This document shows positions 1 through 10,082 of a DNA stretch of 10,082 nucleotides, one piece after another. Numbering within the stretch: the stretch's first letter is position 1; each line of letters starts with the position of its first letter. The DNA lies in the IMG/VR virus record IMGVR_UViG_2917855067_000003, positions 1 to 10,082 of that record; one strand, given 5' to 3'. The translations under genes and the position numbers were made by a program. Under the pieces are notes generated by a model. That model saw only the letters and a list, made by a program, of their open reading frames with translations. It was not told the DNA's origin and ran no database searches. The DNA comes from a virus. Taxonomy: Duplodnaviria; Heunggongvirae; Uroviricota; Caudoviricetes.

Positions 1-1095
1 TTATGTTGCTACGGGTTCGTCGCATTTCGGTAGCCAGTCGCCGTAGCTTTCCTCTTTCAGCGACAGATTGGTTTGTATCCCCTGCTTAGTGTGCCGCTTC
101 TCATAATTCAGGCCGTACTCTTTCAGCATCATGGGCAGCCCCAGCCCGAACATTTTCAGGCTGAGTACGTTCCTGTACCCGTTAGCCTCCATATAGGCCA
201 GATACGCGTGATAGAGATATTTACGATAATTACGCGGGATGATGCTGGCATTCCCCATAAACATCCCGTTGGTCTGCGGGAGCATTTCCAGATAGCCGCA
301 AAAATCAAACGTAGGGTCAGCATCGCGCTTGATGCTGAGCGCCTCGTCGGAATTCTGCTGTGACTGGAGCAGTGCGCGGGCTGCCATCGGGTCGCTGAAC
401 TTCTGCATGAGCTGGCGCACAATCACGGCCAGCTCGCGCGCAATTTTATCCCTGAGCTGCGGGTCGCGTTCCTCCGGCGCAATTTGCTCCGGGAAGTGAA
501 TAATCACCCGGCGACGTGACACACCACCGCTGCGGTCGGTGAAGCGCATGGGGTTATTGTTCACTGCCAGAATCACCGCCGGAATGTGTGTTGAGTACGG
601 GTTCTGGTATTTCGGGTCAACCGAGACCGCATCGCCGCCGGTGATGGCCTTAAGCCCTGCGCCGTCACCGCTCCATTTTTCCTGGTCAGGCAGACGGATA
701 AGCGAGAAGCCAATCAGGGAGGCACGCTTGCGCGGGTCTTCCAGCGTGTCGATGTCGGCTGACGTGGCGTTATCTTCCCCGGCAAGCAATGTCGCGATTT
801 CAGCCAGAATACTTTTGCCACTCCCGCCGGGACCGGTCACTTCGAGAAAGAGCTGCCAGTCGTAACGGTTCGCCAGCACCATAAACAGCGCGGCCAGAAT
901 CACGTCGCGTTTTTGTGGATTTTTACCGGCTGCACGGTCGAGCCAGCGCCAGAAGTTCGGCGCGTGCGTCCCCAGCCGTTTCCCCTTCCACCGGCGGGGT
1001 AAAATCCACATCGCACAGCGTGCGCAGCCAGTGCGATTTGTGGTGCGGGCTGAATACGCCGCTTTGGGTATCGAGTACCCCGTTGCGAAAGCCAA
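1..1095 (-). CDS. alpha: P4 alpha-type primase/helicase, C-terminal segment (SF3/D5-like helicase and origin-binding part); homologous part is about 4..975, stop codon at 1..3
   Basis: ORF-track translation contains Walker A GPGGSGKS and the long C-terminal region typical of P4 alpha. It lies in a different frame from 923..2335 and overlaps it. The ATG at 1095 is an ORF-caller start, not necessarily a biological one. Confidence 0.8.
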   Translation of the reverse strand: MAFATGYSIPKAAYSARTTNRTGCARCAMWILPRRWKGKRLGTHAPNFWRWLDRAAGKNPQKRDVILAALFMVLANRYDWQLFLEVTGPGGSGKSILAEIATLLAGEDNATSADIDTLEDPRKRASLIGFSLIRLPDQEKWSGDGAGLKAITGGDAVSVDPKYQNPYSTHIPAVILAVNNNPMRFTDRSGGVSRRRVIIHFPEQIAPEERDPQLRDKIARELAVIVRQLMQKFSDPMAARALLQSQQNSDEALSIKRDADPTFDFCGYLEMLPQTNGMFMGNASIIPRNYRKYLYHAYLAYMEANGYRNVLSLKMFGLGLPMMLKEYGLNYEKRHTKQGIQTNLSLKEESYGDWLPKCDEPVAT

Positions 1096-2335
1096 TCAGA
1101 CGGCGCGCCGGTGTATCCTGCTGCGGAATAATCAGTTTCAGGGTCTCCACAACTGAGGCGATTTTCCCCGACGAGAACGGGGCGCGCAGACGCTGGAATA
1201 AGTCAGCCACATTCCGTGAAAAAGTGGCGACAGGGATATTTTTCCAGATGCCGTTTTCATAGCGGGACAGGAGCTGGCCGTTCGCATCCACTGCCAGCGC
1301 TTCGCCGTAATGCTCATGCACCCGCAAAGCCTTGTCGCTGGCGCTCATGGCGGTAAATTCCGCCTCGCTCATGGTATCAAACGGACTTTGCGCCGGTGGC
1401 CGGATGGCGTCATAAATCGCTTTGCGTGTGGCTTCCTCGCCGTACTGTATAAACGCATCATTCCAGTCACCGAATACCGGCGGCAGGGCAACAACGCCCT
1501 CACAGGCGTCTGCGGCCGCAGCGGCTTTACTCTGGCCGTCGCCGTTAAGGTCACGGTCGGCAGCGAGCACAATCTGACAGGCCGGGGACTTCTGACGGGC
1601 AAGGCTCGCCAGAGAAAGGAGGTTCACGGAGGACAGTGCTACCATGACGGTTTCCCCGGTCAGGTGATGCACGGTGAGTGCAGTCGCATACCCCTCTGCA
1701 ATCCACAGGCGTTTTCCGGCCTGTTTTTTCCCTTCGATGGTATGGCATGCTCCTTTTACCGCCCCGCCTTTCAGGGTGCGTTTGAGACCGTCAGAATTGA
1801 TAAGCTGAAGGTTAACCAGTGCGCCGGTATCGTCATACAGCGGGACAACCACATCACCGGCGCGGAACGTCACGCCGCCGGTTTTGTGTGTGGCCGACAG
1901 TACCGGACATTCCCGGTCGGGGAAACCCTTTCGGGTCAGGTAGGCGTTGCCGCTGGCCGGTCGGGTTTTCTCCATGAGCCTGACGGCCAGTGCGGCCGCC
2001 GCTTTGCGGTCAGCCTCCGTTTCAGCCTCTGCGGCCGCAATCACTTCCGGGGCAACCGGCGGCAGATTGCCGGTCACGGCGTTCACCTTCCCGGCGGCCT
2101 CTGAGGGAGTCACGCCAAACACTTTTTCTACCAGCTTAAGCCCGTCACCCGCGCCGCATTGATTGCAGAACCACGTCCCGCGCCCTTCTTTATCGTCAAA
2201 GCGGAAACGGTCAGAGCCGCCGCATACCGGGCAGGACTGATGGCGGTTTTTAATTACTTTCACACCCAGCGCAGGGAGAATGCGCGGCCAGTGGCCGCAC
2301 GCCTGTTTTACCGTTTCTGTTACGTTCATTTTCAT
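923..2335 (-). CDS. alpha: P4 alpha-type primase/helicase, N-terminal segment (zinc ribbon and primase domain); ends prematurely at 923 unless a frameshift is corrected
   Basis: Translation from MKMNVTETVKQ contains the zinc-ribbon motif CPVCGGSDRFRFDDKEGRGTWFCNQCG. The ATG at 2335..2333 is preferred over 2386 because AGGGAGA lies 9 nt upstream. The frame stops at 923 while the homology continues in another frame. Confidence 0.8.
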   Translation of the reverse strand: MKMNVTETVKQACGHWPRILPALGVKVIKNRHQSCPVCGGSDRFRFDDKEGRGTWFCNQCGAGDGLKLVEKVFGVTPSEAAGKVNAVTGNLPPVAPEVIAAAEAETEADRKAAAALAVRLMEKTRPASGNAYLTRKGFPDRECPVLSATHKTGGVTFRAGDVVVPLYDDTGALVNLQLINSDGLKRTLKGGAVKGACHTIEGKKQAGKRLWIAEGYATALTVHHLTGETVMVALSSVNLLSLASLARQKSPACQIVLAADRDLNGDGQSKAAAAADACEGVVALPPVFGDWNDAFIQYGEEATRKAIYDAIRPPAQSPFDTMSEAEFTAMSASDKALRVHEHYGEALAVDANGQLLSRYENGIWKNIPVATFSRNVADLFQRLRAPFSSGKIASVVETLKLIIPQQDTPARRLIGFRNGVLDTQSGVFSPHHKSHWLRTLCDVDFTPPVEGETAGDARAELLALARPCSR

Positions 2336-2349
2336 CGTTGTTTTCTCCC

Positions 2350-2670
2350 TCAGTGCAGTACCGGTGCGGTGATATGACGGGCGCAAAGCTCATCCATCAC
2401 GGCCAGCCCGAGAAAGGACAGCGACGGGGCAGCTTTCAGTGGTCCGACTTCCATTAAATCTTCCAGCAGGGCACAGGCAATCTGACGGCCTTTTTCCTCG
2501 CCGTGCTGGCGCAGGTAGAAGCCCTCCAGCTCGGCGGCAATGGCGCTTTCCAGCGCGTCGAGGGTGAGGTGCGGGTAGCGGTGCTGGCGTTCGCACAGGG
2601 TCAGCCATGCACAGGCCACTGCGCGACGATACAGCGCGGCGCGTAATACGGGCGGTAATGGCTTTTTCAT
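2350..2670 (-). CDS. hypothetical protein (106 aa), P4-like leftward operon, immediately upstream of alpha
   Basis: ORF with SD GGGGAGGG upstream of the ATG at 2670. Its start overlaps the stop of the preceding ORF (ATGA), and it ends 14 nt before the alpha start. Function not recognised. Confidence 0.6.
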
Positions 2671-2894
2671 ACGTTACCCTCCCCGGTAAGCCACTGCTGA
2701 TTGCAGCGTTCGACCACGCCGTCGAGCTGGGCGGTCATGAGGTAAATCACGGAGGTGAGCTGTAACTGCTGCGTCGGGTCACGACGAACGGTGGCGCAGT
2801 CCTGCACCTGCATCAGGTTGCCGACGAGCTGGCCGACGTTGCGCATATGCTCCAGACATTCGAGGTCACGGGCGGTAATGGTGGTGTGTCTCAT
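2667..2894 (-). CDS. hypothetical protein (75 aa), P4-like leftward operon
   Basis: ORF with SD GGAGGTG upstream. ATGA overlaps at both ends indicate translational coupling. Function not recognised. Confidence 0.55.
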
Positions 2895-3085
2895 GCGCGC
2901 ACCTCCGCAACCGGCAGACGGCCAGCGAACGAGAGGACGTAATCGCGAATGAGGGAAAGGCGTGCGGCGTGCTCATCACCGGCAACGGTGCGGAGCATAC
3001 AAATACGGGGGGTACGGTCTGCGCGACGAACAGCGGCAAACACAAAGACAAACTGCGGGTGTGACGGGGTGAGGGTCGTAGCCAT
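2891..3085 (-). CDS. hypothetical small protein (64 aa), first gene after the putative leader terminator
   Basis: ATG at 3085 is preceded by a near-consensus SD (AGGAGG, about 9 nt spacing). The same frame stays open up to 3442, but that extension crosses a terminator hairpin and lacks an SD, so the short form is preferred. Confidence 0.5.
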
Positions 3086-3288
3086 AAGGGCAACCTCCTG
3101 TGAATAGCGGTTATTGCCACCACCGGAGTTCCTACGCTCATGGGTGGTGACCCGAACGGGGGTAGGAATACCGGCTTCACAGAATACCGGCCAGCCCGAA
3201 AGCTGCCCCGCCCGGACCACCATTATCTGACAGGGGCTATGGAATAAGCACCACAGCCCGAAAAATGGGTGTGCCTGAGCAACGACGT

Positions 3289-3311
3289 AAAAAAAGACGC
3301 ATGGCGCGTCT
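3289..3311 (-). terminator. rho-independent terminator for leftward transcription (P4 timm-like position)
   Basis: On the minus strand: stem AGACGC / GCGTCT (plus 3295-3300 and 3306-3311), 5-nt loop, followed by a run of 7 U (plus-strand A-run at 3289-3295). Confidence 0.5.
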
Positions 3312-3367
3312 GTTGTCGCCTGTGAATTACACGGGTTCCTACGCCCGGCTGCCGATTTTGCGGCAGC
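3289..3367 (-). ncRNA. candidate small structured RNA (position analogous to the P4 CI / C4-type immunity RNA)
   Basis: About 350 nt lacks a convincing coding region between alpA/vis and the next SD-bearing ORF. The minus-strand transcript would start with a 7-bp hairpin (plus 3348-3354 / 3361-3367), contain further imperfect stems, and end at the terminator. A possible -10 (TATAGT, plus 3374-3379) lies just upstream. No homology check was possible. Confidence 0.25.
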
Positions 3368-3438
3368 GGGAAAACTATACCTGGAAACGGCGAAAAGAAG
3401 CAAGCCAGAAAAAGGGGCTGTTTGCTGAACGGTCATCA

Positions 3439-3705
3439 TCATGCGTCATAGCCCCGGTTACGTTCGGCAATGCGATCCGCCATCCATGCAGTGATTTCAG
3501 ACTGCGCCCACGCCACATTTTTTCCGCCGAGGGAGATTTGTTTCGGGAAGGCTTCCCGGCTGATGAGGTCGTAAATGGTCGAGCGGGACAGGCCGCACAG
3601 ATGCATCACTTCGGGCAGACGGATAAAGCGCTCGTGAACGGTATCAGAAACCGGCATCAGCGGCGCGGCAGGGGCAGAAGACGGGGAAGAAAAAGCAGTG
3701 TGCAT
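3439..3705 (-). CDS. alpA: AlpA/Vis-family helix-turn-helix regulator (88 aa), matching the size of P4 Vis
   Basis: Translation contains the AlpA-family signature ([47 protein letters not shown]). SD GAGG lies upstream of the ATG at 3705. Confidence 0.85.
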
Positions 3706-3766
3706 CGGGCTACCTCACAAAGTCCATACAGTGCCGGTCGTGTCCGTCCGGCTTCGGGTAGCTCCT

Positions 3767-3795
3767 TATTATGTCTATATTTTTCCTCAGGTCAT
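3767..3795 (-). promoter_or_regulatory. candidate sigma70-type promoter for the leftward alpA/vis operon
   Basis: Minus strand reads ATGACC, a 16-17 nt spacer, then CATAAT/ATAATA, about 55-60 nt upstream of the alpA ATG. The -35 is weak. Confidence 0.25.
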
Positions 3796-3834
3796 GTGAG
3801 ATTTTCGGGGAAACAAACATTGACTTTTCGCTCT

Positions 3835-3871
3835 GGCAAACAAAGGCAAACGCTGGCAAACATATGCAAAT
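3835..3871. promoter_or_regulatory. four direct repeats at exact 10-bp phasing (GGCAAAC x3 and TGCAAAT); candidate regulator binding array
   Basis: GGCAAAC at 3835-3841, 3845-3851 and 3855-3861; TGCAAAT at 3865-3871. They sit in the divergent control region between alpA/vis and sid. Confidence 0.4.
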
Positions 3872-3873
3872 CA

Positions 3874-3889
3874 CTGCATTACAATGCAG
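3874..3889. promoter_or_regulatory. perfect palindrome CTGCATT-AC-AATGCAG; candidate operator
   Basis: 7-bp inverted arms with a 2-bp spacer, directly after the phased repeats and before an AT-rich stretch. Confidence 0.4.
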
Positions 3890-3971
3890 CAATTTCTATT
3901 TCTTTTAGTTATATATTTTTCATTTTTAATCAAAATAAAGTCTAAATGCTATAACCAGAGCAAAACAGGAG

Positions 3972-4105
3972 GGTGAACAGTGGTGAACAGACGGTGAACA
4001 GTCAGACCCTCAACTATTCACCCTTTAACTTACTGTATTAATTATCTTTTTATTTAAGGTGAACAGTGGTGAATAGTTATAAGTAAAAAAATAAACGGTG
4101 AGTAA
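3972..4105. repeat. iteron array GGTGAACA(G), the reverse complement of the P4 type I iteron TGTTCACC; ori/crr-like alpha binding region
   Basis: GGTGAACAG at 3972-3980, 3982-3990, 3993-4001 and 4058-4066; GGTGAATAG at 4068-4076; inverted copy CTATTCACC at 4013-4021; degenerate GGTGAGTAA at 4097-4105. Spacing is 10-11 bp within clusters, and an AT-rich stretch (about 3890-3960) lies alongside. Confidence 0.7.
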
Positions 4106-4152
4106 GGTTTTCCTGCGACCTTTCTCTGGCCAGCCGGTTTTTAAGGTCTGTT

Positions 4153-4170
4153 TGTGCCAGCATTCTGACA
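4153..4170 (+). promoter_or_regulatory. Ogr/Delta box (TGT-N12-ACA) of a Psid-like late promoter
   Basis: TGT at 4153-4155 and ACA at 4168-4170 are separated by 12 nt. The dyad centre is about 80 nt upstream of the sid ATG, consistent with a -55 activator site and a short leader. A weak -10-like CAGAAT lies near 4205-4210. Confidence 0.45.
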
Positions 4171-4242
4171 ACGGCAATGAATCGTGTTGTTGTGCAGGAG
4201 GCGTCAGAATCATTTCAGGTTGAACACACGGAGAACCTGAAC

Positions 4243-4986
4243 ATGAAACCCGAACTCATTATCAAAGCCATGCAGACCGTTATCAGTAAACAGGATGAAG
4301 GCGCGGAACAACGCATTGCCGGTGCGCTGGCCGCACTTAACGAAGCAAAAGATGCACACACGGCCAGCATGGGTAAACTCAGCGACATTGAGGCTTCCAT
4401 TCAGCGTTGTGAGCAGGAACGACAGACCGCCCTCAGTGAAAGTGCACAGGCCGAACAGGACTGGCGCAGCCGCCTTCGAACTCTGCGCGGCAACCTCACT
4501 CCTGAACTGAAAGCTGAACACAGTAAACGTATCGCCAGCCGCGAACTGGCTGATGAGTTCACCGGTCTGATTACCGAGCTGGAGAAAGACAAAAGTCTCG
4601 CCATGCTTGGCGCATGCTCCTCCGGTACGGCTTATATCAGCGCCCATGAAAAAGCATTCACCACTTACGCCAACAGCGAATGGAAGAAGGTGCTGGCCGG
4701 TATCAGCCCCGCACTGTTACGTGCCTTCCTGTTGCGTATACGGTCGCTGGAAATGAGCGGAGAAACCTCATCGCGTGCGACCGCGACACGTGAGCTGGGT
4801 GATGCCCTGAATCTGCAGTCAGCCCTGTATCATTTTGATATGGAGCAGGAGCCGGTCCTGTCCGTAACGGGCATGAATCGCCCGGTCATAACCGGGGTTG
4901 ATATGGCGCTGTTAAGAAGCCCGGCCAGACGGATGAAGCTTGCCGCTGAACTGGCTGCAAAATCCCACGAACAGGCAGAGGGCTGA
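4243..4986 (+). CDS. sid: Sid-like capsid size determination (external scaffold) protein, 247 aa
   Basis: Assigned by position as first gene of the sid-delta-psu operon, by its charged, helix-rich composition, and by a length near P4 Sid (about 244 aa as I recall). Start at 4243 has SD GGAG 9 nt upstream; the ORF-track start at 4177 would lie inside the promoter. Confidence 0.6.
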   Translation: MKPELIIKAMQTVISKQDEGAEQRIAGALAALNEAKDAHTASMGKLSDIEASIQRCEQERQTALSESAQAEQDWRSRLRTLRGNLTPELKAEHSKRIASRELADEFTGLITELEKDKSLAMLGACSSGTAYISAHEKAFTTYANSEWKKVLAGISPALLRAFLLRIRSLEMSGETSSRATATRELGDALNLQSALYHFDMEQEPVLSVTGMNRPVITGVDMALLRSPARRMKLAAELAAKSHEQAEG

Positions 4987-4989
4987 ATT

Positions 4990-5229
4990 ATGTTTCACTG
5001 TCCGTTCTGCAAAAAGACCGCGCACGTCCGTACCAGCCGTTATCTGTCGGAAAACGTCAAACAGCGTTATCACCAGTGTACCAATATCGAATGTTCGGCC
5101 ACTTTCCGCACCATCGAGTCGGTTGACGGTGTGATACGTGCCGCACCGGAGAAACCTGACCCCACCCCGGTGACGCCGCTGCCGCCGCGTAAAGAACAGG
5201 GCTGCTACAGCTCGCCGTTCCGGCATTAA
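4990..5229 (+). CDS. delta: Ogr/Delta-family zinc-finger late-gene transcription activator (single-domain, 79 aa)
   Basis: Translation MFHCPFCKKTAHVRTSRY...YHQCTNIECSATF has the Ogr/Delta Cys4 arrangement (C4, C7, C30, C35). It starts 4 nt after the sid stop, with SD GAGGG upstream. Confidence 0.85.
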   Translation: MFHCPFCKKTAHVRTSRYLSENVKQRYHQCTNIECSATFRTIESVDGVIRAAPEKPDPTPVTPLPPRKEQGCYSSPFRH

Positions 5230-5244
5230 TCAGGAGAGAGACAC

Positions 5245-5811
5245 GTGACCACTATGACAATACAGCAGGCCTTTGAGGCCTGTCAGGCAAACAAAAACAC
5301 CTGGCTGACACGTAAAGCCGAACTGGCTGACCTTGAACTTGAATACCGTGAACAGCTCCTTGCTGGTGACGAACAAATCCCGCGCAAAATGCAGGATTTG
5401 CGCGACAATATCGACGTGAAAAAATGGGAGATTAATCAGGCCGCCGGTCGCTATATCCGCTCACATGAGGAGGTGCAGCACATCAGCATCCGCAACCGGC
5501 TCTATGACTTTATGCAGCAGCACGGCGCGGAGCTGGCCGCCACGCTGGCGCCTGAATTGATGGGGTATAATGAACAGCTTCCCGTAGTAAAACAGAGCGC
5601 CATGCAGCATTCGGTTGATTATCTGCGTGAAGCCCTGTCAGTGTGGCTGGCCGCAGGTGACAAAATTAATTATTCCGCGCAGGACAGCGACATTTTAACG
5701 GCCATCGGATTCAGGCCTGATGCGGCTTCGCGGGATGATAATCGAGAGAAATTCACCCCGGCACAGAACCTGATTTACACCCGCCGACGTGCAGAACTGG
5801 TCGCACGGTAG
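5245..5811 (+). CDS. psu: Psu (polarity suppression protein; Rho inhibitor / capsid decoration), 188 aa
   Basis: Translation (..IQQAFEACQANKNTWL.., ..NQAAGRYIRSHEEVQHISIRNRL.., ..KINYSAQDSDILTAIGFRPDA..) closely resembles P4 Psu as I recall it. A GTG start at 5245 sits 8 nt after SD GGAGAGAG; the alternative ATG at 5254 is too far from the SD. Confidence 0.9.
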   Translation: MTTMTIQQAFEACQANKNTWLTRKAELADLELEYREQLLAGDEQIPRKMQDLRDNIDVKKWEINQAAGRYIRSHEEVQHISIRNRLYDFMQQHGAELAATLAPELMGYNEQLPVVKQSAMQHSVDYLREALSVWLAAGDKINYSAQDSDILTAIGFRPDAASRDDNREKFTPAQNLIYTRRRAELVAR

Positions 5812-5857
5812 CACGCGAAAAAATCCCCGAAAATTCCGCTATTTTTCCTGAAAAAAG

Positions 5858-5884
5858 CCATGCATCCATAAGGTGCATGGTTTT
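5858..5884 (+). terminator. candidate rho-independent terminator of the sid-delta-psu operon
   Basis: Stem CCATGCATCC / GGTGCATGG (one wobble, 4-nt loop) followed by TTTT at 5881-5884, about 47 nt after the psu stop. Confidence 0.45.
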
Positions 5885-5984
5885 GCATGCAAATCCCCGT
5901 ATTTTATTTCCCCCACCACGCCAGTACCGGCGCGGCCTGAGCCGGTTCATGCACCTGCATTAAAAGTGACCTCTTAAGCGGGCA

Positions 5985-6003
5985 GGCGTGGCGGGGAGAG
6001 CAT
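5985..6003. other. cos-like site (resembles the 19-nt P2/P4 cohesive end)
   Basis: GGCGTGGCGGGGAGAGCAT matches GGCGAGGCGGGGAAAGCAC at 16 of 19 positions. That P2/P4 sequence is recalled from memory and not verified. The site is downstream of psu, where P4 has cos. Confidence 0.4.
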
Positions 6004-6269
6004 TGCGCGCTGGAATAATAATTAATTATTTATTTTCTCGCTCTGTGTTTGTCATTGATGAGTGGCAATTCGTTGACATGCTGGAGAGATATAATGCTGT
6101 TTAAAAGGAAAGAAGCACTTCTGAGGCTTTTAGGTTAGAGGGGAAGTTAAGGCCGCCTTGAGGCGGCGAAAATTAGTCATTTTGGGTATCGAGGAGTAAT
6201 ATTAGGCTGAATGCCACATGCTCCTGAATTAGAACCTTGAGTGCGAGTTGCTACATAAATAAATGGAGC

Positions 6270-6950
6270 TTAAAAATGATTAATCAAGATTTGATTTTTT
6301 TTAATTGCTCGTCTACTCCAGTGCTCTGTGATGTTTTGAGTGAAGTCGGGACGAACTATTTTTGCTCTAAAGTCCACTGCTTCAAGAGATTCTACTCTCA
6401 AATATATTCCTTCTGATATTTCATCGCTGAATTTTGATTTTTTTATATAAGAAGATAACTTGTTTAGTTCAAAGAAACCTTCGTCAAGAAAAGGAACGCA
6501 ATGAAGGTTTGCATTTGATATTATTTCGTTTCTTTGAGGAAGTGGTAAAAATATTTTTCTTTTCTTATCGAATACATCAAATGCTAAAAAATAGTCAGGT
6601 AAGCGGGTGTAGTGAATAGAATGTTTCGCATAACACCATTCCCCAAATATAATGTATTGGTCTCGAATGTAGTCAAAAAGGTTGTCGCGGTTGTAATTTA
6701 ACCAGTCAGGAAGCATTTTCCATTGGCCATTAAAAGGTTGATGTAAAAAAGAACCCCTATTTTGAAGGAGTAAGTCTGCATTACCATTAAAGGAAATGCC
6801 TAGATTAGCTCCGTCAATTTTCTCTTCTATTATGGTTTTTTTAGTTGAAAGCAATAATCGTTCTTTATCTGAAATGACCTTGTCATCCCTGACGTTAGGA
6901 TGGTAAAAAATATGTGGAGTGGACGGGAATTTATATAGTTCATCTTCCAT
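6270..6950 (-). CDS. Rnl2-type RNA-ligase-like nucleotidyltransferase (standalone adenylyltransferase domain, about 226 aa)
   Basis: Translation carries ligase motifs in the right order and spacing: motif I EEKIDGAN (KxDG), motif III FGEW, motif IIIa FDVFD, motif IV EGIYLR, motif V RAKIVR. ATG at 6950 has SD AGGAAG 9 nt upstream; the ORF-track GTG at 6977 has no SD. It is AT-rich and overlaps the upstream gene by 11 nt. Confidence 0.7.
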   Translation of the reverse strand: MEDELYKFPSTPHIFYHPNVRDDKVISDKERLLLSTKKTIIEEKIDGANLGISFNGNADLLLQNRGSFLHQPFNGQWKMLPDWLNYNRDNLFDYIRDQYIIFGEWCYAKHSIHYTRLPDYFLAFDVFDKKRKIFLPLPQRNEIISNANLHCVPFLDEGFFELNKLSSYIKKSKFSDEISEGIYLRVESLEAVDFRAKIVRPDFTQNITEHWSRRAIKKNQILINHF

Positions 6951-7479
6951 TTGGAAACTTCCTATTATATGTATCACTTATGAGTTTTTCGTCAGCAAAA
7001 TGAACCGTTATGCCTACATCAGCAAGAGATTCTTTCCAGCCCCACCATTTACTATCAGTTGCTTGAAAAATAGGCGGTTTGTCTACGTGTGCGTATGACG
7101 TGGCTACAAATTTTCTATCCGATAAATCAAAGTTTGTCAGGCCTTCATGTACAGGGAACTCCTCATAGCTAGTTTCGGTTTTTGTAATTCTTACGATGTT
7201 TTTATCAGGGAATTTCCATTGGTTAGTGTAAATCCATTTCATAAATTTATCACCAACGCCAGGGGCTCCACTCATGCTTAAATTTGAGCGATACTCTTCA
7301 ACTATTTCTTGTGCTTCATCAATAACTAACCCACCATTTGCAATTGCCTTTTCTATTATTTCAACACACTCTAAAACACAGCTTAGAATATCATCTGGAA
7401 TGTTTTTTATATCTGTGTGCATATTAGCTGTAACAGCAACATTTGTATCAATTAAAAAAGCAGCAGGTAATTTATTCAT
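6940..7479 (-). CDS. PIN-like domain protein (putative nuclease), 179 aa
   Basis: N-terminal AAFLIDTNVAV resembles the first PIN strand with its conserved Asp; further acidic positions (DEAQE, ATDSKW, ISDTY) fit the PIN pattern. SD GAAGG upstream; start overlaps the ATPase stop (ATGA). The domain call is by eye. Confidence 0.6.
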   Translation of the reverse strand: MNKLPAAFLIDTNVAVTANMHTDIKNIPDDILSCVLECVEIIEKAIANGGLVIDEAQEIVEEYRSNLSMSGAPGVGDKFMKWIYTNQWKFPDKNIVRITKTETSYEEFPVHEGLTNFDLSDRKFVATSYAHVDKPPIFQATDSKWWGWKESLADVGITVHFADEKLISDTYNRKFPNGR

Positions 7480-8861
7480 TTAGATGTACCTTCTTTTTCT
7501 TTTATTCTTCTTTTTAACGCTGATTTTGCTTGCTCTGTAATGTCTGTTAATTCATCACCAAAGAAATTATCTGGCCAGTTGAGGATATTTCCAAATGTAT
7601 CGATTTGCAACGGTGTTAATTTTGGGGTTGAAGATGAAATGTCAGAGAAGTACGCGGAAACTTCCTCGGATTTTATTTTGTCTTCTGCTATTCTCCTTTG
7701 CAGTCTGCGAAGGAAATGCTCTGAGTGAGTTTCTATAATTAGCTGTATGCCTCTTGATTTTCCATTTTCTCGTGAACGGATAACATCGATCATAACATCA
7801 GCAAGCACTGATTGTGCTTTTGGGTGTAAATGAATTTCGGGTTGTTCCATCAAAATTATTGAGCCTGGTTGAGCGTAAAAGCATTGTACTAGAACTGGAA
7901 GAACCTGAGAAACCCCAAACCCAACATCTGGAAGGTCTACCCACTGTTTAGAGCCTTTAGTTTTAACTTTGACTTCATATTCTTGACGATGTTCTGAAAT
8001 TGCTTTTACAGAAAAACTATCAATTAAGTCCATTTGTTTTAATTTTTCAGCGATGATTTCTTCTAATGGTTTATTTTTCTTTTTATAATCAAGGCCGATT
8101 CTTCTTTCTTTTGATGAAAGAATGGCGGAAATTGCATTTTCACCTGCATAACCTACGCTTTCTGGTGAAATTCCAGTCCATGGATATAATCGTTCAGGCT
8201 TATTTCTCATTGGCCCTAAGTAACATACTGAACGGAATAGCTTTTCATGCATTAGATTGATGTCTTGCACAAAATCAGCATTTTGATGGTAAGCTACGAC
8301 TTCCTCAGGGAAACCATAAAATCTAACTACATCTTTTATCGCCCAAACCCTACCCTTCTGTCGAGTTAGAGTGAAATTGTTAGTTTTGATTTTATAATTT
8401 GACTTAGCGTCACGAACAAGTCCTATAGATACATCATCTTTTTCTTTCTGATAGAATGTATATGAGAATCCATTGACATATAAGCTATTATTCTCAGCAT
8501 TAAAAGATATCTCAGATTTAAAATGGCATATTTTCGATAAGGATATAATGCTGTCTAATGATGATTTAGAGTATAATTCATCTATTGACCAAGAGTACTC
8601 AAATGAGATGTTCTTGTTAACGTCTCTCATGTTAACCATGTCTTGAAATGAGCCCAATTGTACTGCTGAGTTTTTACCTCCTGGGTAGAATGGGGTTTTT
8701 CTATCAGATGATTCAACCGTTTGTTTAAGCATCATGAGAAGCTGGCCAATACTAGATTTACCAGAGCTATTTGTTCCAAAGAAAAGAGTGATAGGTGACA
8801 TTTTGATTTCACCTGTATCAGTCCAAACCTTAAAATTTTCTACTTTTAATGTTTTAAACAT
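7476..8861 (-). CDS. ABC-type ATPase (AAA_15/AAA_21, OLD/RecF-like), 461 aa
   Basis: Walker A GTNSSGKSS near the N-terminus, Walker B region ILMEQPEIHLHP and H-loop ETHSEHF near the C-terminus, with a long insertion between, as in defence-associated ABC ATPases. SD AAGGA upstream; ATG is only 3 nt after the int stop. Confidence 0.85.
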   Translation of the reverse strand: MFKTLKVENFKVWTDTGEIKMSPITLFFGTNSSGKSSIGQLLMMLKQTVESSDRKTPFYPGGKNSAVQLGSFQDMVNMRDVNKNISFEYSWSIDELYSKSSLDSIISLSKICHFKSEISFNAENNSLYVNGFSYTFYQKEKDDVSIGLVRDAKSNYKIKTNNFTLTRQKGRVWAIKDVVRFYGFPEEVVAYHQNADFVQDINLMHEKLFRSVCYLGPMRNKPERLYPWTGISPESVGYAGENAISAILSSKERRIGLDYKKKNKPLEEIIAEKLKQMDLIDSFSVKAISEHRQEYEVKVKTKGSKQWVDLPDVGFGVSQVLPVLVQCFYAQPGSIILMEQPEIHLHPKAQSVLADVMIDVIRSRENGKSRGIQLIIETHSEHFLRRLQRRIAEDKIKSEEVSAYFSDISSSTPKLTPLQIDTFGNILNWPDNFFGDELTDITEQAKSALKRRIKEKEGTSK

Positions 8862-8864
8862 TTC

Positions 8865-10082
8865 TTATCCTTTGCTTTTAGATTTTATGATGGAAGCATT
8901 TTGGATTTCATCACCCCACCAAGCTAATAAATCACTACGTTGTTTTAAATAATTTGCACGGTTATATGCTCTTCTGACTTCATTTTTATCTGTATGTGCC
9001 AAAGATGATTCAATTATATCAGCGTTGAAACCAGCTTCATTCATAGTTGTACTCGCGATAGAACGTAATCCATGTGCGACTAATTTACCACCATAACCTA
9101 TTCGCTTCAAAGCGGCATTAGCCGTCTGGCTATTCATAGGTTGCTGTGGATCATTTCTACTTGGAAAAATATATTCTCTATGTGCACTGATTGGCCTCAT
9201 TACTTCCAGAATCTCTAATGCTTGAGTAGAAAGAGGTACGATGTGTTCCCGTTTTGCCTTCATCCGTTCGGCTGGGATCGTCCAGAGTTTGGCATTGAGA
9301 TCGATCTCTGCCCATCGTGTACCTGAAGCCTCAGAAGGTCGCACGAGAGTCAGAAGCTGCCATTCAATAAGACAGCGAGTCGAAACAGACAGATTCGACA
9401 TCACCAAAGAGCGCATTAGCTTCGGCAATTCTTCCGGCCGAAGGGTCGGCATGTTTTGCTTTTTTGGTTTCTCAAATGCCATTCCGACACCTGATGCCGG
9501 GTTTGCATCAATCAGGCCAGTGTTGACGGCGTAGATCATGATTTCGTTAATACGTTGTACCAGGCGGCGAACCGTCTCTAATGCGCCACGTGCTTTGATT
9601 GGCTCCAATGCTTCAACTATCGTTCTGGCCTTAATTTCCTGAACAGGTATTGCGCCTATTGCGGGGAACACGTCCTTATCTAAAGAGCGCCATATATCTT
9701 TCGCGTAGTCTTCAGTGACGCTTTTGCTCTTCATTTTGAACCAGTTGGCGGCCACAGTTGAGAAAATGCTATCCAGCTCAATCTGACGCTGTTCTGATGC
9801 CTGCTCTTGTTGCTGTTGCGGATCCATACCCTGCGCGAGTGTGGTTAAGTGCTGGTCGCGTATCTGACGAGCTGCTGCGAGAGTAAGGGCAGGGTATGAG
9901 CCGAGACTCAAATTAGTTCGGCTGCCACTGACCGGACGTTGATAGCGGAAGCGCCAGAGTTTTTTACCGGTGGTTTTGACGAGCAAGAACAGGCCGTCAC
10001 CATCATGAAGGGTGAAGTCTTTTTCCCGAGGTTTGGCTTTAAGGATTTCGTTGTTAGTGAGGGGGCGTGTGAGGCGCGCCAT
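8865..10082 (-). CDS. int: P4-type tyrosine integrase (405 aa)
   Basis: N-terminus MARLTRPLTNNEILKAKPREKDFTLHDGDGLFLLVKTTGKKLWRFRYQ is the P4-integrase arm-binding domain; C-terminus has HGLRSIAST and RRAYNRANY (catalytic Tyr). The start codon is the last 3 nt of the window. Confidence 0.95.
   Translation of the reverse strand: MARLTRPLTNNEILKAKPREKDFTLHDGDGLFLLVKTTGKKLWRFRYQRPVSGSRTNLSLGSYPALTLAAARQIRDQHLTTLAQGMDPQQQQEQASEQRQIELDSIFSTVAANWFKMKSKSVTEDYAKDIWRSLDKDVFPAIGAIPVQEIKARTIVEALEPIKARGALETVRRLVQRINEIMIYAVNTGLIDANPASGVGMAFEKPKKQNMPTLRPEELPKLMRSLVMSNLSVSTRCLIEWQLLTLVRPSEASGTRWAEIDLNAKLWTIPAERMKAKREHIVPLSTQALEILEVMRPISAHREYIFPSRNDPQQPMNSQTANAALKRIGYGGKLVAHGLRSIASTTMNEAGFNADIIESSLAHTDKNEVRRAYNRANYLKQRSDLLAWWGDEIQNASIIKSKSKG

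Follow-up and report, generated by a model that had tools for sequence, protein, structure and literature searches.

The viral DNA analysed here, 10,082 nucleotides making up positions 1 to 10,082 of IMG/VR record IMGVR_UViG_2917855067_000003 (hereafter the window), is the body of a P4-like satellite. The complete element is 11.7 kb long and is integrated at the 3′ end of ssrA, the transfer-messenger RNA (tmRNA) gene, in Escherichia sp. E3356. Its replication gene alpha is split by a single extra base, and between cos and the integrase gene int it carries an operon predicted to encode an ABC-type ATPase, a PIN-domain nuclease and an RNA ligase, which would be defence cargo. We give this overall reading, in which the steps of mobility and defence are inferred, a probability of about 0.7.

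A complete satellite at the 3′ end of ssrA

The window is the exact reverse complement of positions 8780-18861 of our locus L004, from the 150-kb contig PDIE01000013.1 (GCA_004745295.1) of Escherichia sp. E3356. It runs from the alpha stop codon to the int start codon, and so holds the body of the element without its ends. The ends lie in the flanking sequence. ARAGORN places ssrA 184 bases beyond int, and int adjoins ssrA both in the E3356 contig and in the relatives of the element. The last bases of ssrA form an 18-bp direct repeat, CCGCCAGCTCCACCAAAT (L004 8582-8599), which recurs once, beyond alpha (20301-20318). The predicted circle is 11,719 bp, compared with 11,624 bp for P4. A sequence-only reading of the window had put the element at about 10 kb and had expected a flanking transfer RNA (tRNA) gene; the whole element is larger, the flank is the tmRNA gene, and there are no tRNA genes in the window. 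The same reading had pointed to att sites outside the window, and the 18-bp repeats were indeed found there, at the ssrA 3′ end and 11.7 kb away. Truncation and absence of att sites, which it had named as grounds for giving up its proposal, were checked on the flanks, and the element proved intact with its att repeats present.

The best identity of the E3356 housekeeping flank among 5,426 complete E. coli genomes is 96.2%, which argues that the host is an Escherichia outside typical E. coli.

The backbone was compared with P4 (NC_001609), with protein identities taken from tblastn and domains from Pfam, PHROGs and Rfam. The core set of Moura de Sousa & Rocha 2021 consists of int, psu, delta, sid, alpA, epsilon/Ash and alpha. 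Co-localised int, psu, delta, sid and alpA are all present, in P4 order. The epsilon/Ash marker of SatelliteFinder-type definitions is supplied by a 183-amino-acid (aa) Ash open reading frame (ORF); the 95-aa P4 epsilon and orf151 have no detectable homologue. Alpha is present as a full-length homologous sequence, though not as an intact ORF because of the +1 frameshift. A survey of P4-like elements recognizes a ‘Type B’ class consisting of elements without alpha. All backbone ORFs other than alpha have the lengths annotated in intact E. coli relatives. The initial call of a P4-like satellite with all its backbone modules is thus borne out by P4 homology, Pfam, PHROG and Rfam matches, iterons and cos.

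Part of the element lies outside the window, between alpha and the distal att. This interval contains crr, with one well-kept 120-bp unit of five iterons (three exact and two near) and a degenerate second unit, followed by a second cargo gene (L004 19278-20159) for a 293-aa protein with PvuRts1I_N and SRA domains. RefSeq names this protein an AbaSI-family restriction endonuclease, that is, a modified-cytosine-dependent, type IV enzyme. Both known P4 cargo hotspots are occupied: cos-int by the ATPase-PIN-ligase operon and crr-att by the AbaSI/PvuRts1I-type gene. De Sousa et al. 2026 (PMC13586616) describe the primase-att interval as the minor P4 hotspot and state that about 1% of P4s with complete defence systems have systems in more than one hotspot, so that this element would be one of the reportedly rare (∼1%) P4s with both occupied. 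Sixteen complete E. coli genomes carry the crr-AbaSI-att segment at 99.6% identity; for the remainder of the element, nothing in the complete E. coli genomes exceeds 95%.

The cargo cassette and its RNA ligase

The slot between cos and int (6011-8909) is AT-rich, with 33–38% G+C compared with 55–60% in the backbone, and contains three co-directional genes on the int strand. It stands in the place of P4 gop, beta and cII, as had been proposed from the window sequence; none of gop, beta, cII, epsilon or orf151 has a tblastn match in the window. Homology to the E. coli sister satellites (95%) ends at 6010, seven bases past the cos cohesive end, and resumes at 8910-8945, within the last 15–25 codons of int. 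The int gene is 85% identical to the E. coli sisters compared with 95% for the remaining backbone, and its 3′ end is as low in G+C as the cassette. These identities make the element a mosaic, with a Klebsiella element as the closest match (95%) to its int-cassette-cos block.

PADLOC profiles identify the first two genes. The ATPase matches the profile labelled HEC-03B over its full length (E 1e-124) and the PIN protein matches a HEC-03 profile (E 2e-25); the A and B labels of PADLOC are reversed relative to the HEC-03 preprint. The ATPase also matches NsnB (E 2e-64). Its Walker A motif is GTNSSGKS. The Walker B dyad is E-Q (IILMEQPEIHLHP, window 7845-7865, residues ∼335–345) in essentially all homologues, where the canonical dyad is D-E, and the ABC signature is GxG (DVGFGVSQ), replacing SGG. 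A glutamine at the position of the catalytic base suggests that the protein is an ATP-binding switch with slow or no hydrolysis. The PIN protein consists of a single PIN domain with a PIN fold and the invariant acidic residues D11, E58, D121 and D142. The third protein has the nucleotidyltransferase fold and ligase motifs I, III, IV and V. Its model shows the nucleotidyltransferase domain only, and it has no accessory domain, either C-terminal as in Rnl2 or N-terminal as in Rnl5. It scores 20 bits against TIGR01209 (Rnl3), for which the cutoff is 137, and no PADLOC model matched it. On the strength of these profile and motif matches, the cassette belongs to the HEC-03 defence family and its third gene is predicted to encode a stand-alone RNA ligase of the nick-sealing type.

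The three genes keep company across distant bacteria. A ligase-seeded search covered one genome per species, and in about 74 of its 80 best loci (L005-L084) ATPase, PIN and ligase genes follow in this order on one strand. The carriers are found in Desulfobacterota, Planctomycetota, Bacillota, Bacteroidota, Nitrospirota, Chloroflexota, Spirochaetota, Latescibacterota, a Nealsonbacteria metagenome-assembled genome and others. A PIN-seeded search of metagenome loci (L091-L170), with counts only where the contig has room, placed the ligase gene directly downstream of the PIN gene in 61 of 65 loci and the ATPase gene upstream in 57 of 57; four loci have a two-gene form with no ligase. The triad proteins in the seeded loci are 40–65% identical to those of the window. 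This adjacency in both sets indicates a sister form of HEC-03 in which the ligase is a conserved third component. In 11 of the 80 best ligase-seeded loci the genes around the triad encode a DNA methylase, an SNF2 helicase and PglZ, so that it lies within another defence system, and no recurrent fourth gene was found around it in those 80.

We found no description of the ATPase-PIN-ligase triad in the searchable literature, which included the accessible text of Rousset 2022, de Sousa 2026, Payne 2024 and the Menshen paper; this coverage excluded Krishnan et al. 2020 and Burroughs & Aravind 2016, either of which may mention the triad. Co-occurrence of PIN_5 and Rnl3 in archaea has been noted previously. 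The cassette had been called novel from its sequence. That description suits the third gene, the ligase, which is undescribed; the first two genes, for the ATPase and the PIN, have their counterparts in the validated HEC-03 system. What is moderately novel here is the triad with its ligase, and the element itself adds one example to the well-mapped P4 family of thousands of satellites.

How might the cassette work? HEC-03, Menshen and other ABC-ATPase systems suggest, by analogy, that the ATPase would sense infection and release or activate the PIN RNase, which would then cut an essential structured RNA, either tRNA or ribosomal RNA (rRNA), and translation would stop. The ligase may act on the same RNA ends as the PIN. 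Resealing would be the most economical reading of its presence, and could limit self-damage or allow recovery. Metal-dependent PIN cleavage is commonly held to leave 3′-OH and 5′-phosphate ends, and such ends would be joinable by an Rnl2-type ligase without end-healing enzymes. We found no citable statement of the cleavage chemistry in the PIN classification paper. We put forward only tentatively the idea that the ligase is an integral third subunit that reseals the tRNA or rRNA cuts of its own PIN, making it the antidote or reset switch of a widespread immune module. If this rather doubtful idea were true, the ligase would suppress autoimmunity in uninfected cells and make translational arrest reversible after the infection clears, with a nuclease-ligase ‘toxin-repair’ pair replacing the toxin-antitoxin pair.

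The interrupted alpha gene and the decay of relatives

Alpha is interrupted by one base. There is an extra C at 975/976, giving CC where P4 and the E. coli elements KMi029 and HKUOPY1 have one C (CAG-CG to CAGCCG), and in a four-way MAFFT alignment this is the only internal indel across 2.3 kb. The frameshift had been suspected from the window, and it is present in the sequence as given. The reading frame shifts by +1 after about codon 452, and 17 missense codons then lead to a TAA stop at 923-925. The break falls between the D5_N domain and the P-loop of the helicase, so the truncated product would keep the zinc ribbon and the Toprim primase and lose the superfamily 3 (SF3) helicase and the winged-helix origin-binding domain. 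Deletion of one C restores a 777-codon alpha ORF with no stop.

The rest of the gene is in good order. Compared with intact relatives, the ratio of nonsynonymous to synonymous substitution rates (dN/dS) is 0.06–0.10 for the whole of alpha and 0.027 downstream of the lesion; in comparisons between intact alpha genes the values are 0.069 for the whole gene and 0.027 for the downstream part. The absence of relaxed constraint once alpha is repaired indicates that the lesion is either very recent or an artefact. The replication gene had been described as damaged, and this stands as far as the one-base frameshift goes. There is no decay downstream of it, however, and on this measure a recent mutation and an artefact are indistinguishable.

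Lesions in the replication module recur in the relatives. In the closest of these, a Klebsiella contig (L173, VJZH01000001), the segment from ssrA through int, the triad and cos to psu and delta is 95% identical, with host flanks of only 78–83%, and alpha (17767-19701) has lost 133 aa, residues 41–173, by an in-frame deletion that takes out the zinc ribbon of the primase. In a short Logan contig of 6.2 kb (L175, 96% identical), psu is followed directly by the final 150 bases of alpha; as assembled, this is a 5.1-kb deletion from delta to near the alpha end (L175 5048-5340). The replication-module lesions in these two closest carriers of the int-cassette block (95–96%) are independent. A further P4-like carrier of the cassette, more distant than these two, is an IMG/VR contig. 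At the same ssrA site, 16 E. coli genomes carry a decayed element with int and psu pseudogenes and only a C-terminal fragment of alpha. Its AAA ATPase+HNH pair (Septu/PtuAB-like) and its AbaSI gene are intact; the example described here is that of E. coli O157:H16 Santai (L172, NZ_CP007592.1 3118992-3125698). According to de Sousa et al. 2026 (PMC13586616), defective P4s show pseudogenisation of the primase more often than of any other core gene, and they keep near-identical, intact defence genes. The lesions in the Klebsiella contig, the Logan contig and the Santai-type remnant fit this published decay of satellites around intact defence cargo, as far as comparison of sequences can tell. That the element is kept mainly for its cargo, as the sequence-only reading had proposed, gains indirect support from the replication lesions in the two closest carriers, the decayed sister with its intact defence genes and the published survey.

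Is the extra C a natural change? It could be an error of sequencing or assembly, or a mutation acquired in culture, in which case the natural element would be fully functional with an intact 777-aa alpha. The lesion is single, the repaired ORF is perfect and its downstream dN/dS equals that of intact relatives; the source is a draft whole-genome shotgun assembly; and in six K. pneumoniae relatives that carry the same cassette alpha is an uninterrupted 777 codons. The change from C to CC within CAGCCG is nonetheless outside any long homopolymer, an atypical site for a short-read consensus error, and the deposited assembly has no gene and no protein called across alpha; together these two facts favour a real mutation. 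Moreover, genuine damage to the replication module is frequent both among the closest relatives and among P4-like elements generally, and we consider an artefact unlikely. If the C is real, the split gene might still work, either as a primase part (aa 1–452) together with a re-initiated helicase and origin-binding fragment or as that fragment with host DnaG, so that replication would be merely weakened. The break lies exactly in the linker between D5_N and the P-loop and leaves whole domains in both halves, in-frame GTG and ATG codons of the helicase frame follow 21–42 nucleotides past the stop at 923-925, and in the closest relative alpha stays in frame and is missing only the zinc ribbon of the primase. 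Ziegelin and colleagues are reported to have found in 1995 that primase-null and helicase-null alpha complement each other in trans and that active DnaG makes the primase unnecessary. The candidate restart codons, however, have no Shine-Dalgarno-like sequence and no slippery motif is evident, and on these two grounds we rejected programmed frameshifting and Shine-Dalgarno-driven restart. The arrangement occurs in no relative, and we regard a functional split alpha as very improbable.

It is also conceivable that the element has become a fixed, immobile defence island, having lost excision and transfer and being under selection for its cargo only. The broken alpha would agree with this, as would the sister elements at ssrA, in which int and psu are pseudogenes and alpha is a remnant next to defence genes that are intact, and the near-identical int-cassette block in the contig that lost delta through alpha. 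Against it stand the intact state of int, vis, sid, delta, psu, cos, ori, crr, cI RNA and the two att repeats in this copy, an excised size (11.7 kb) in line with the 11.6 kb of P4, and purifying selection on the backbone genes; we judge such an island to be distinctly unlikely. We prefer the reading of a complete satellite, with defence cargo and a split alpha, for which several observations are nevertheless awkward. The frameshift is known from one draft assembly, and alpha is otherwise undecayed. Exact database look-ups found neither the truncated alpha ORFs (with various starts) nor the repaired 777-aa protein, a result that carries no information, since neither pseudogenes nor products at contig ends are kept there. 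Three positions of the cos cohesive end are unlike P4. The ORF for P4 epsilon, which serves in helper derepression, is missing, although it is equally missing from relatives with intact alpha. Finally, HEC-03 was tested as two genes, so that the role of the ligase is a matter of deduction.

A life cycle can be proposed for the preferred satellite. In the lysogen, the cI RNA would silence the left operon while the defence genes are expressed and the host is protected. With a P2-like helper active, late transcription would begin and Vis and Int would excise the circle; Delta would switch on the helper late genes, and Sid and Psu would steer capsid assembly to the small size. The helper terminase could then package the 11.7-kb circle at cos. 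Since truncated alpha lacks the helicase and origin-binding parts, the element should be unable to amplify itself. Transfer would be rare unless another P4-like element with the same iterons supplied alpha in trans, or unless the lesion were an artefact. The single clean lesion, considered with the alpha-region lesions of the closest relatives, would place this copy at the first step of the decay route, with its cargo intact. It would be a clean first-step snapshot of the decay of a primase gene, with one base changed and the rest intact.

Backbone features and comparison with known systems

The features of the window are collected in Table 1.

Table 1 Features of the window, numbered from its first base; percentages are identities to P4
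Feature	Position	Strand	Evidence and remarks
alpha (primase-helicase-ori binding), interrupted	1..2335	-	tblastn to P4 alpha in two pieces: aa 1-453 81%, aa 451-775 90%
alpha, first frame	923-2335	-	codons 1-452 + missense tail; Pfam Zn_Ribbon_Prim, Toprim_3, D5_N
alpha, second frame (helicase + winged-helix)	1-~984	-	Pfam DUF5906, Pox_D5
cnr/orf106 (DUF5375)	2350..2670	-	PF17345 E 5e-65; 92% to P4 ORF106
75-aa protein of unknown function	2667..2894	-	phrog_10110 E 6.5e-46; sits where P4 has epsilon/orf151
Ash/Icd-like 183-aa ORF, overlaps immunity RNA	2891..3442	-	PF10554 Phage_ASH on deposited gene; phrog_6928 E 2e-79; 67% to P4 ‘cI’ ORF
cI immunity RNA (C4 antisense RNA family)	3140..3227	-	Rfam RF01695 78.3 bits (gathering score 45), full-length
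cI RNA target sites/isrK-type leader with terminator	3290..3380	-	RF01394 isrK 77.5 bits; RF03163 c4-a1b1 49.6 bits
vis/alpA (excisionase-regulator)	3439..3705	-	PF05930 E 3e-20; 70% to P4 ORF88
ori, type I iterons GGTGAACA/TGTTCACC	3972..4076	.	four exact + two with one mismatch; in register with P4 ori
TGT-N12-ACA dyad, putative Delta/Ogr activator site, upstream of sid	4153..4170	+	aligns with P4 Psid dyad
sid (external scaffold, small capsids), 247 aa	4243..4986	+	28% to P4 Sid, E 8e-22; phrog_6165 (P4 Sid family) E 3e-74
delta, single Ogr/Delta zinc-finger domain, 79 aa	4990..5229	+	PF04606 E 9e-21
psu (capsid decoration/Rho antagonist)	5245..5811	+	PF07455 E 5e-88; 62% to P4 Psu
cos region	5920..6010	+	aligned to joined P4 ends; cohesive-end sequence GGCGTGGCGGGGAGAGCAT at 5985-6003
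Stand-alone RNA ligase (predicted), 226 aa, nucleotidyltransferase domain only	6270..6950	-	start overlaps PIN gene by 11 nt
VapC-like PIN-domain nuclease, 179 aa, predicted effector	6940..7479	-	start overlaps ATPase stop by 4 nt
ABC-type ATPase with DUF3696 tail, 461 aa, predicted sensor/switch	7476..8861	-	Pfam AAA_15, AAA_21, DUF3696; starts 3 nt after int stop
Tyrosine integrase int, 405 aa, ssrA-specific type	8865..10082	-	Pfam Arm-DNA-bind_3, Phage_int_M, Phage_integrase (E 1.5e-32); 35% to P4 Int

Several of these features deserve comment. The 75-aa protein is present in 61% of P4-like elements and missing from P4 (PMC8628076). A terminator-like hairpin (3295-3311) lies within the cI RNA target/isrK leader. 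In a pattern search, four exact copies of the ori iteron were observed at 3972-4065 compared with 0.23 expected by chance, and the register of ori was checked by alignment with P4, KMi029 and a Klebsiella element. The dyad upstream of sid is less distinctive, as TGT-N12-ACA by itself turns up no less often than chance predicts; the four-way alignment shows the dyad at a conserved position, and its putative function as a Delta/Ogr activator site is taken from the known P2/P4 late promoters. The 79-aa Delta matches both halves of P4 Delta with 39–43% identity. Single-finger Delta proteins are also found in phiR73-type satellites. At cos, 16 of the 19 bases of the cohesive end are those of P4 and the surrounding 190-bp stretch is 76% identical to the P4 cos junction; about 90 bp of this stretch also resembles the cos regions of P2-like phages.

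The element shares with P4 the order of its modules: alpha, cnr, cI RNA, vis, ori and crr with the same iteron, the Psid dyad, sid-delta-psu, cos, a cargo slot and int. It differs from P4 in its divergent Int, which targets ssrA whereas that of P4 targets leuX, in its divergent Sid, and in having one Ogr domain in Delta where the 166-aa P4 Delta has two by duplication. It also differs in having the 75-aa ORF in place of epsilon and orf151, a replaced gop/beta/cII segment, an extra restriction gene between crr and att, and a frameshifted alpha. The E. coli ssrA satellites KMi029 and HKUOPY1 are much closer, being 95% identical from alpha to cos and occupying the same integration site, but their alpha is intact and their cargo is different (PARIS-like AAA+DUF4435, Drt3, a retron and others). 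Megablast and blastn searches of the 5,426 complete E. coli genomes with the cassette found nothing beyond the cos region. The cassette is common in Klebsiella. The K. pneumoniae ssrA elements (L085-L090, including DAGATR01) share int and the triad with the window at about 87% identity; their sid differs, and their alpha is intact at 777 aa.

The length and start of sid are as in the relatives. The sid segment (window 4239-4990, L004 13872-14623) has no nucleotide similarity to those six Klebsiella elements, and its flanks are 84–87% identical; a divergence of this kind is consistent with Sid proteins matched to different helper capsids. No sid gene is called in L085 and L086, and the Ash ORF of L087-L089 has 64 aa, compared with 183 aa in the window.

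Among defence systems, HEC-03 is the nearest relative of the cassette. Payne et al. 2024 (10.1101/2024.01.29.577857) describe HEC-03 as an ABC ATPase and a PIN protein embedded in Hma loci, which reduces plaquing, needs both genes and is toxic on induction. The cassette shares the ABC ATPase beside a VapC-like PIN, and some genomes with the triad share the methylase/helicase defence context. HEC-03 was, however, defined and tested as a two-gene system, whereas the cassette and more than 90% of the relatives sampled add a ligase that is translationally coupled to the PIN.

Other systems share single parts. The ATPase resembles NsnB of Menshen (NsnABC) in its DUF3696 tail, in its non-canonical Walker B motif (EQ in the cassette, EN in NsnB) and in having GxG in place of SGG. 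In Menshen, the DUF3696 tail of NsnB is predicted to hold the PIN-like domain of NsnC. We rejected Menshen as the identity of the cassette: there is no NsnA (ParB/DUF262) gene between cos and int, the PIN stands alone with all its acidic residues whereas NsnC is an inactive PIN fused to a C-terminal toxin domain, and the cassette has a ligase. PARIS (AriA/AriB) was set aside as well, with the AriA profile matching weakly (E 1e-29 compared with 1e-124 for HEC-03) and no Toprim/DUF4435 protein present. Similarly, the cassette is not a VapBC type II toxin-antitoxin pair, as there is no VapB gene and the partner of the PIN is a 461-aa ABC ATPase encoded upstream, with the RNA ligase gene downstream.

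The ligase finds its own counterparts among enzymes of RNA repair. T4 Rnl2, Naegleria NgrRnl (Rnl5) and trypanosome REL1 share its nucleotidyltransferase fold and all of the ligase motifs, but the cassette ligase is only 226 aa long and has no N- or C-terminal RNA-binding domain. T4 Pnk and Rnl1, which counter PrrC, and bacterial Pnkp-Hen1 provide the closest parallel in setting, a ligase paired with a nuclease that cuts translation RNA during conflict. Unlike those systems, the cassette has no end-healing kinase or phosphatase, and the ligase is encoded by the defender, in the operon of the nuclease, rather than by the phage. If the ligase does act on the cuts of its PIN partner, the cassette would represent a defender-encoded RNA repair step built into an abortive-infection system.

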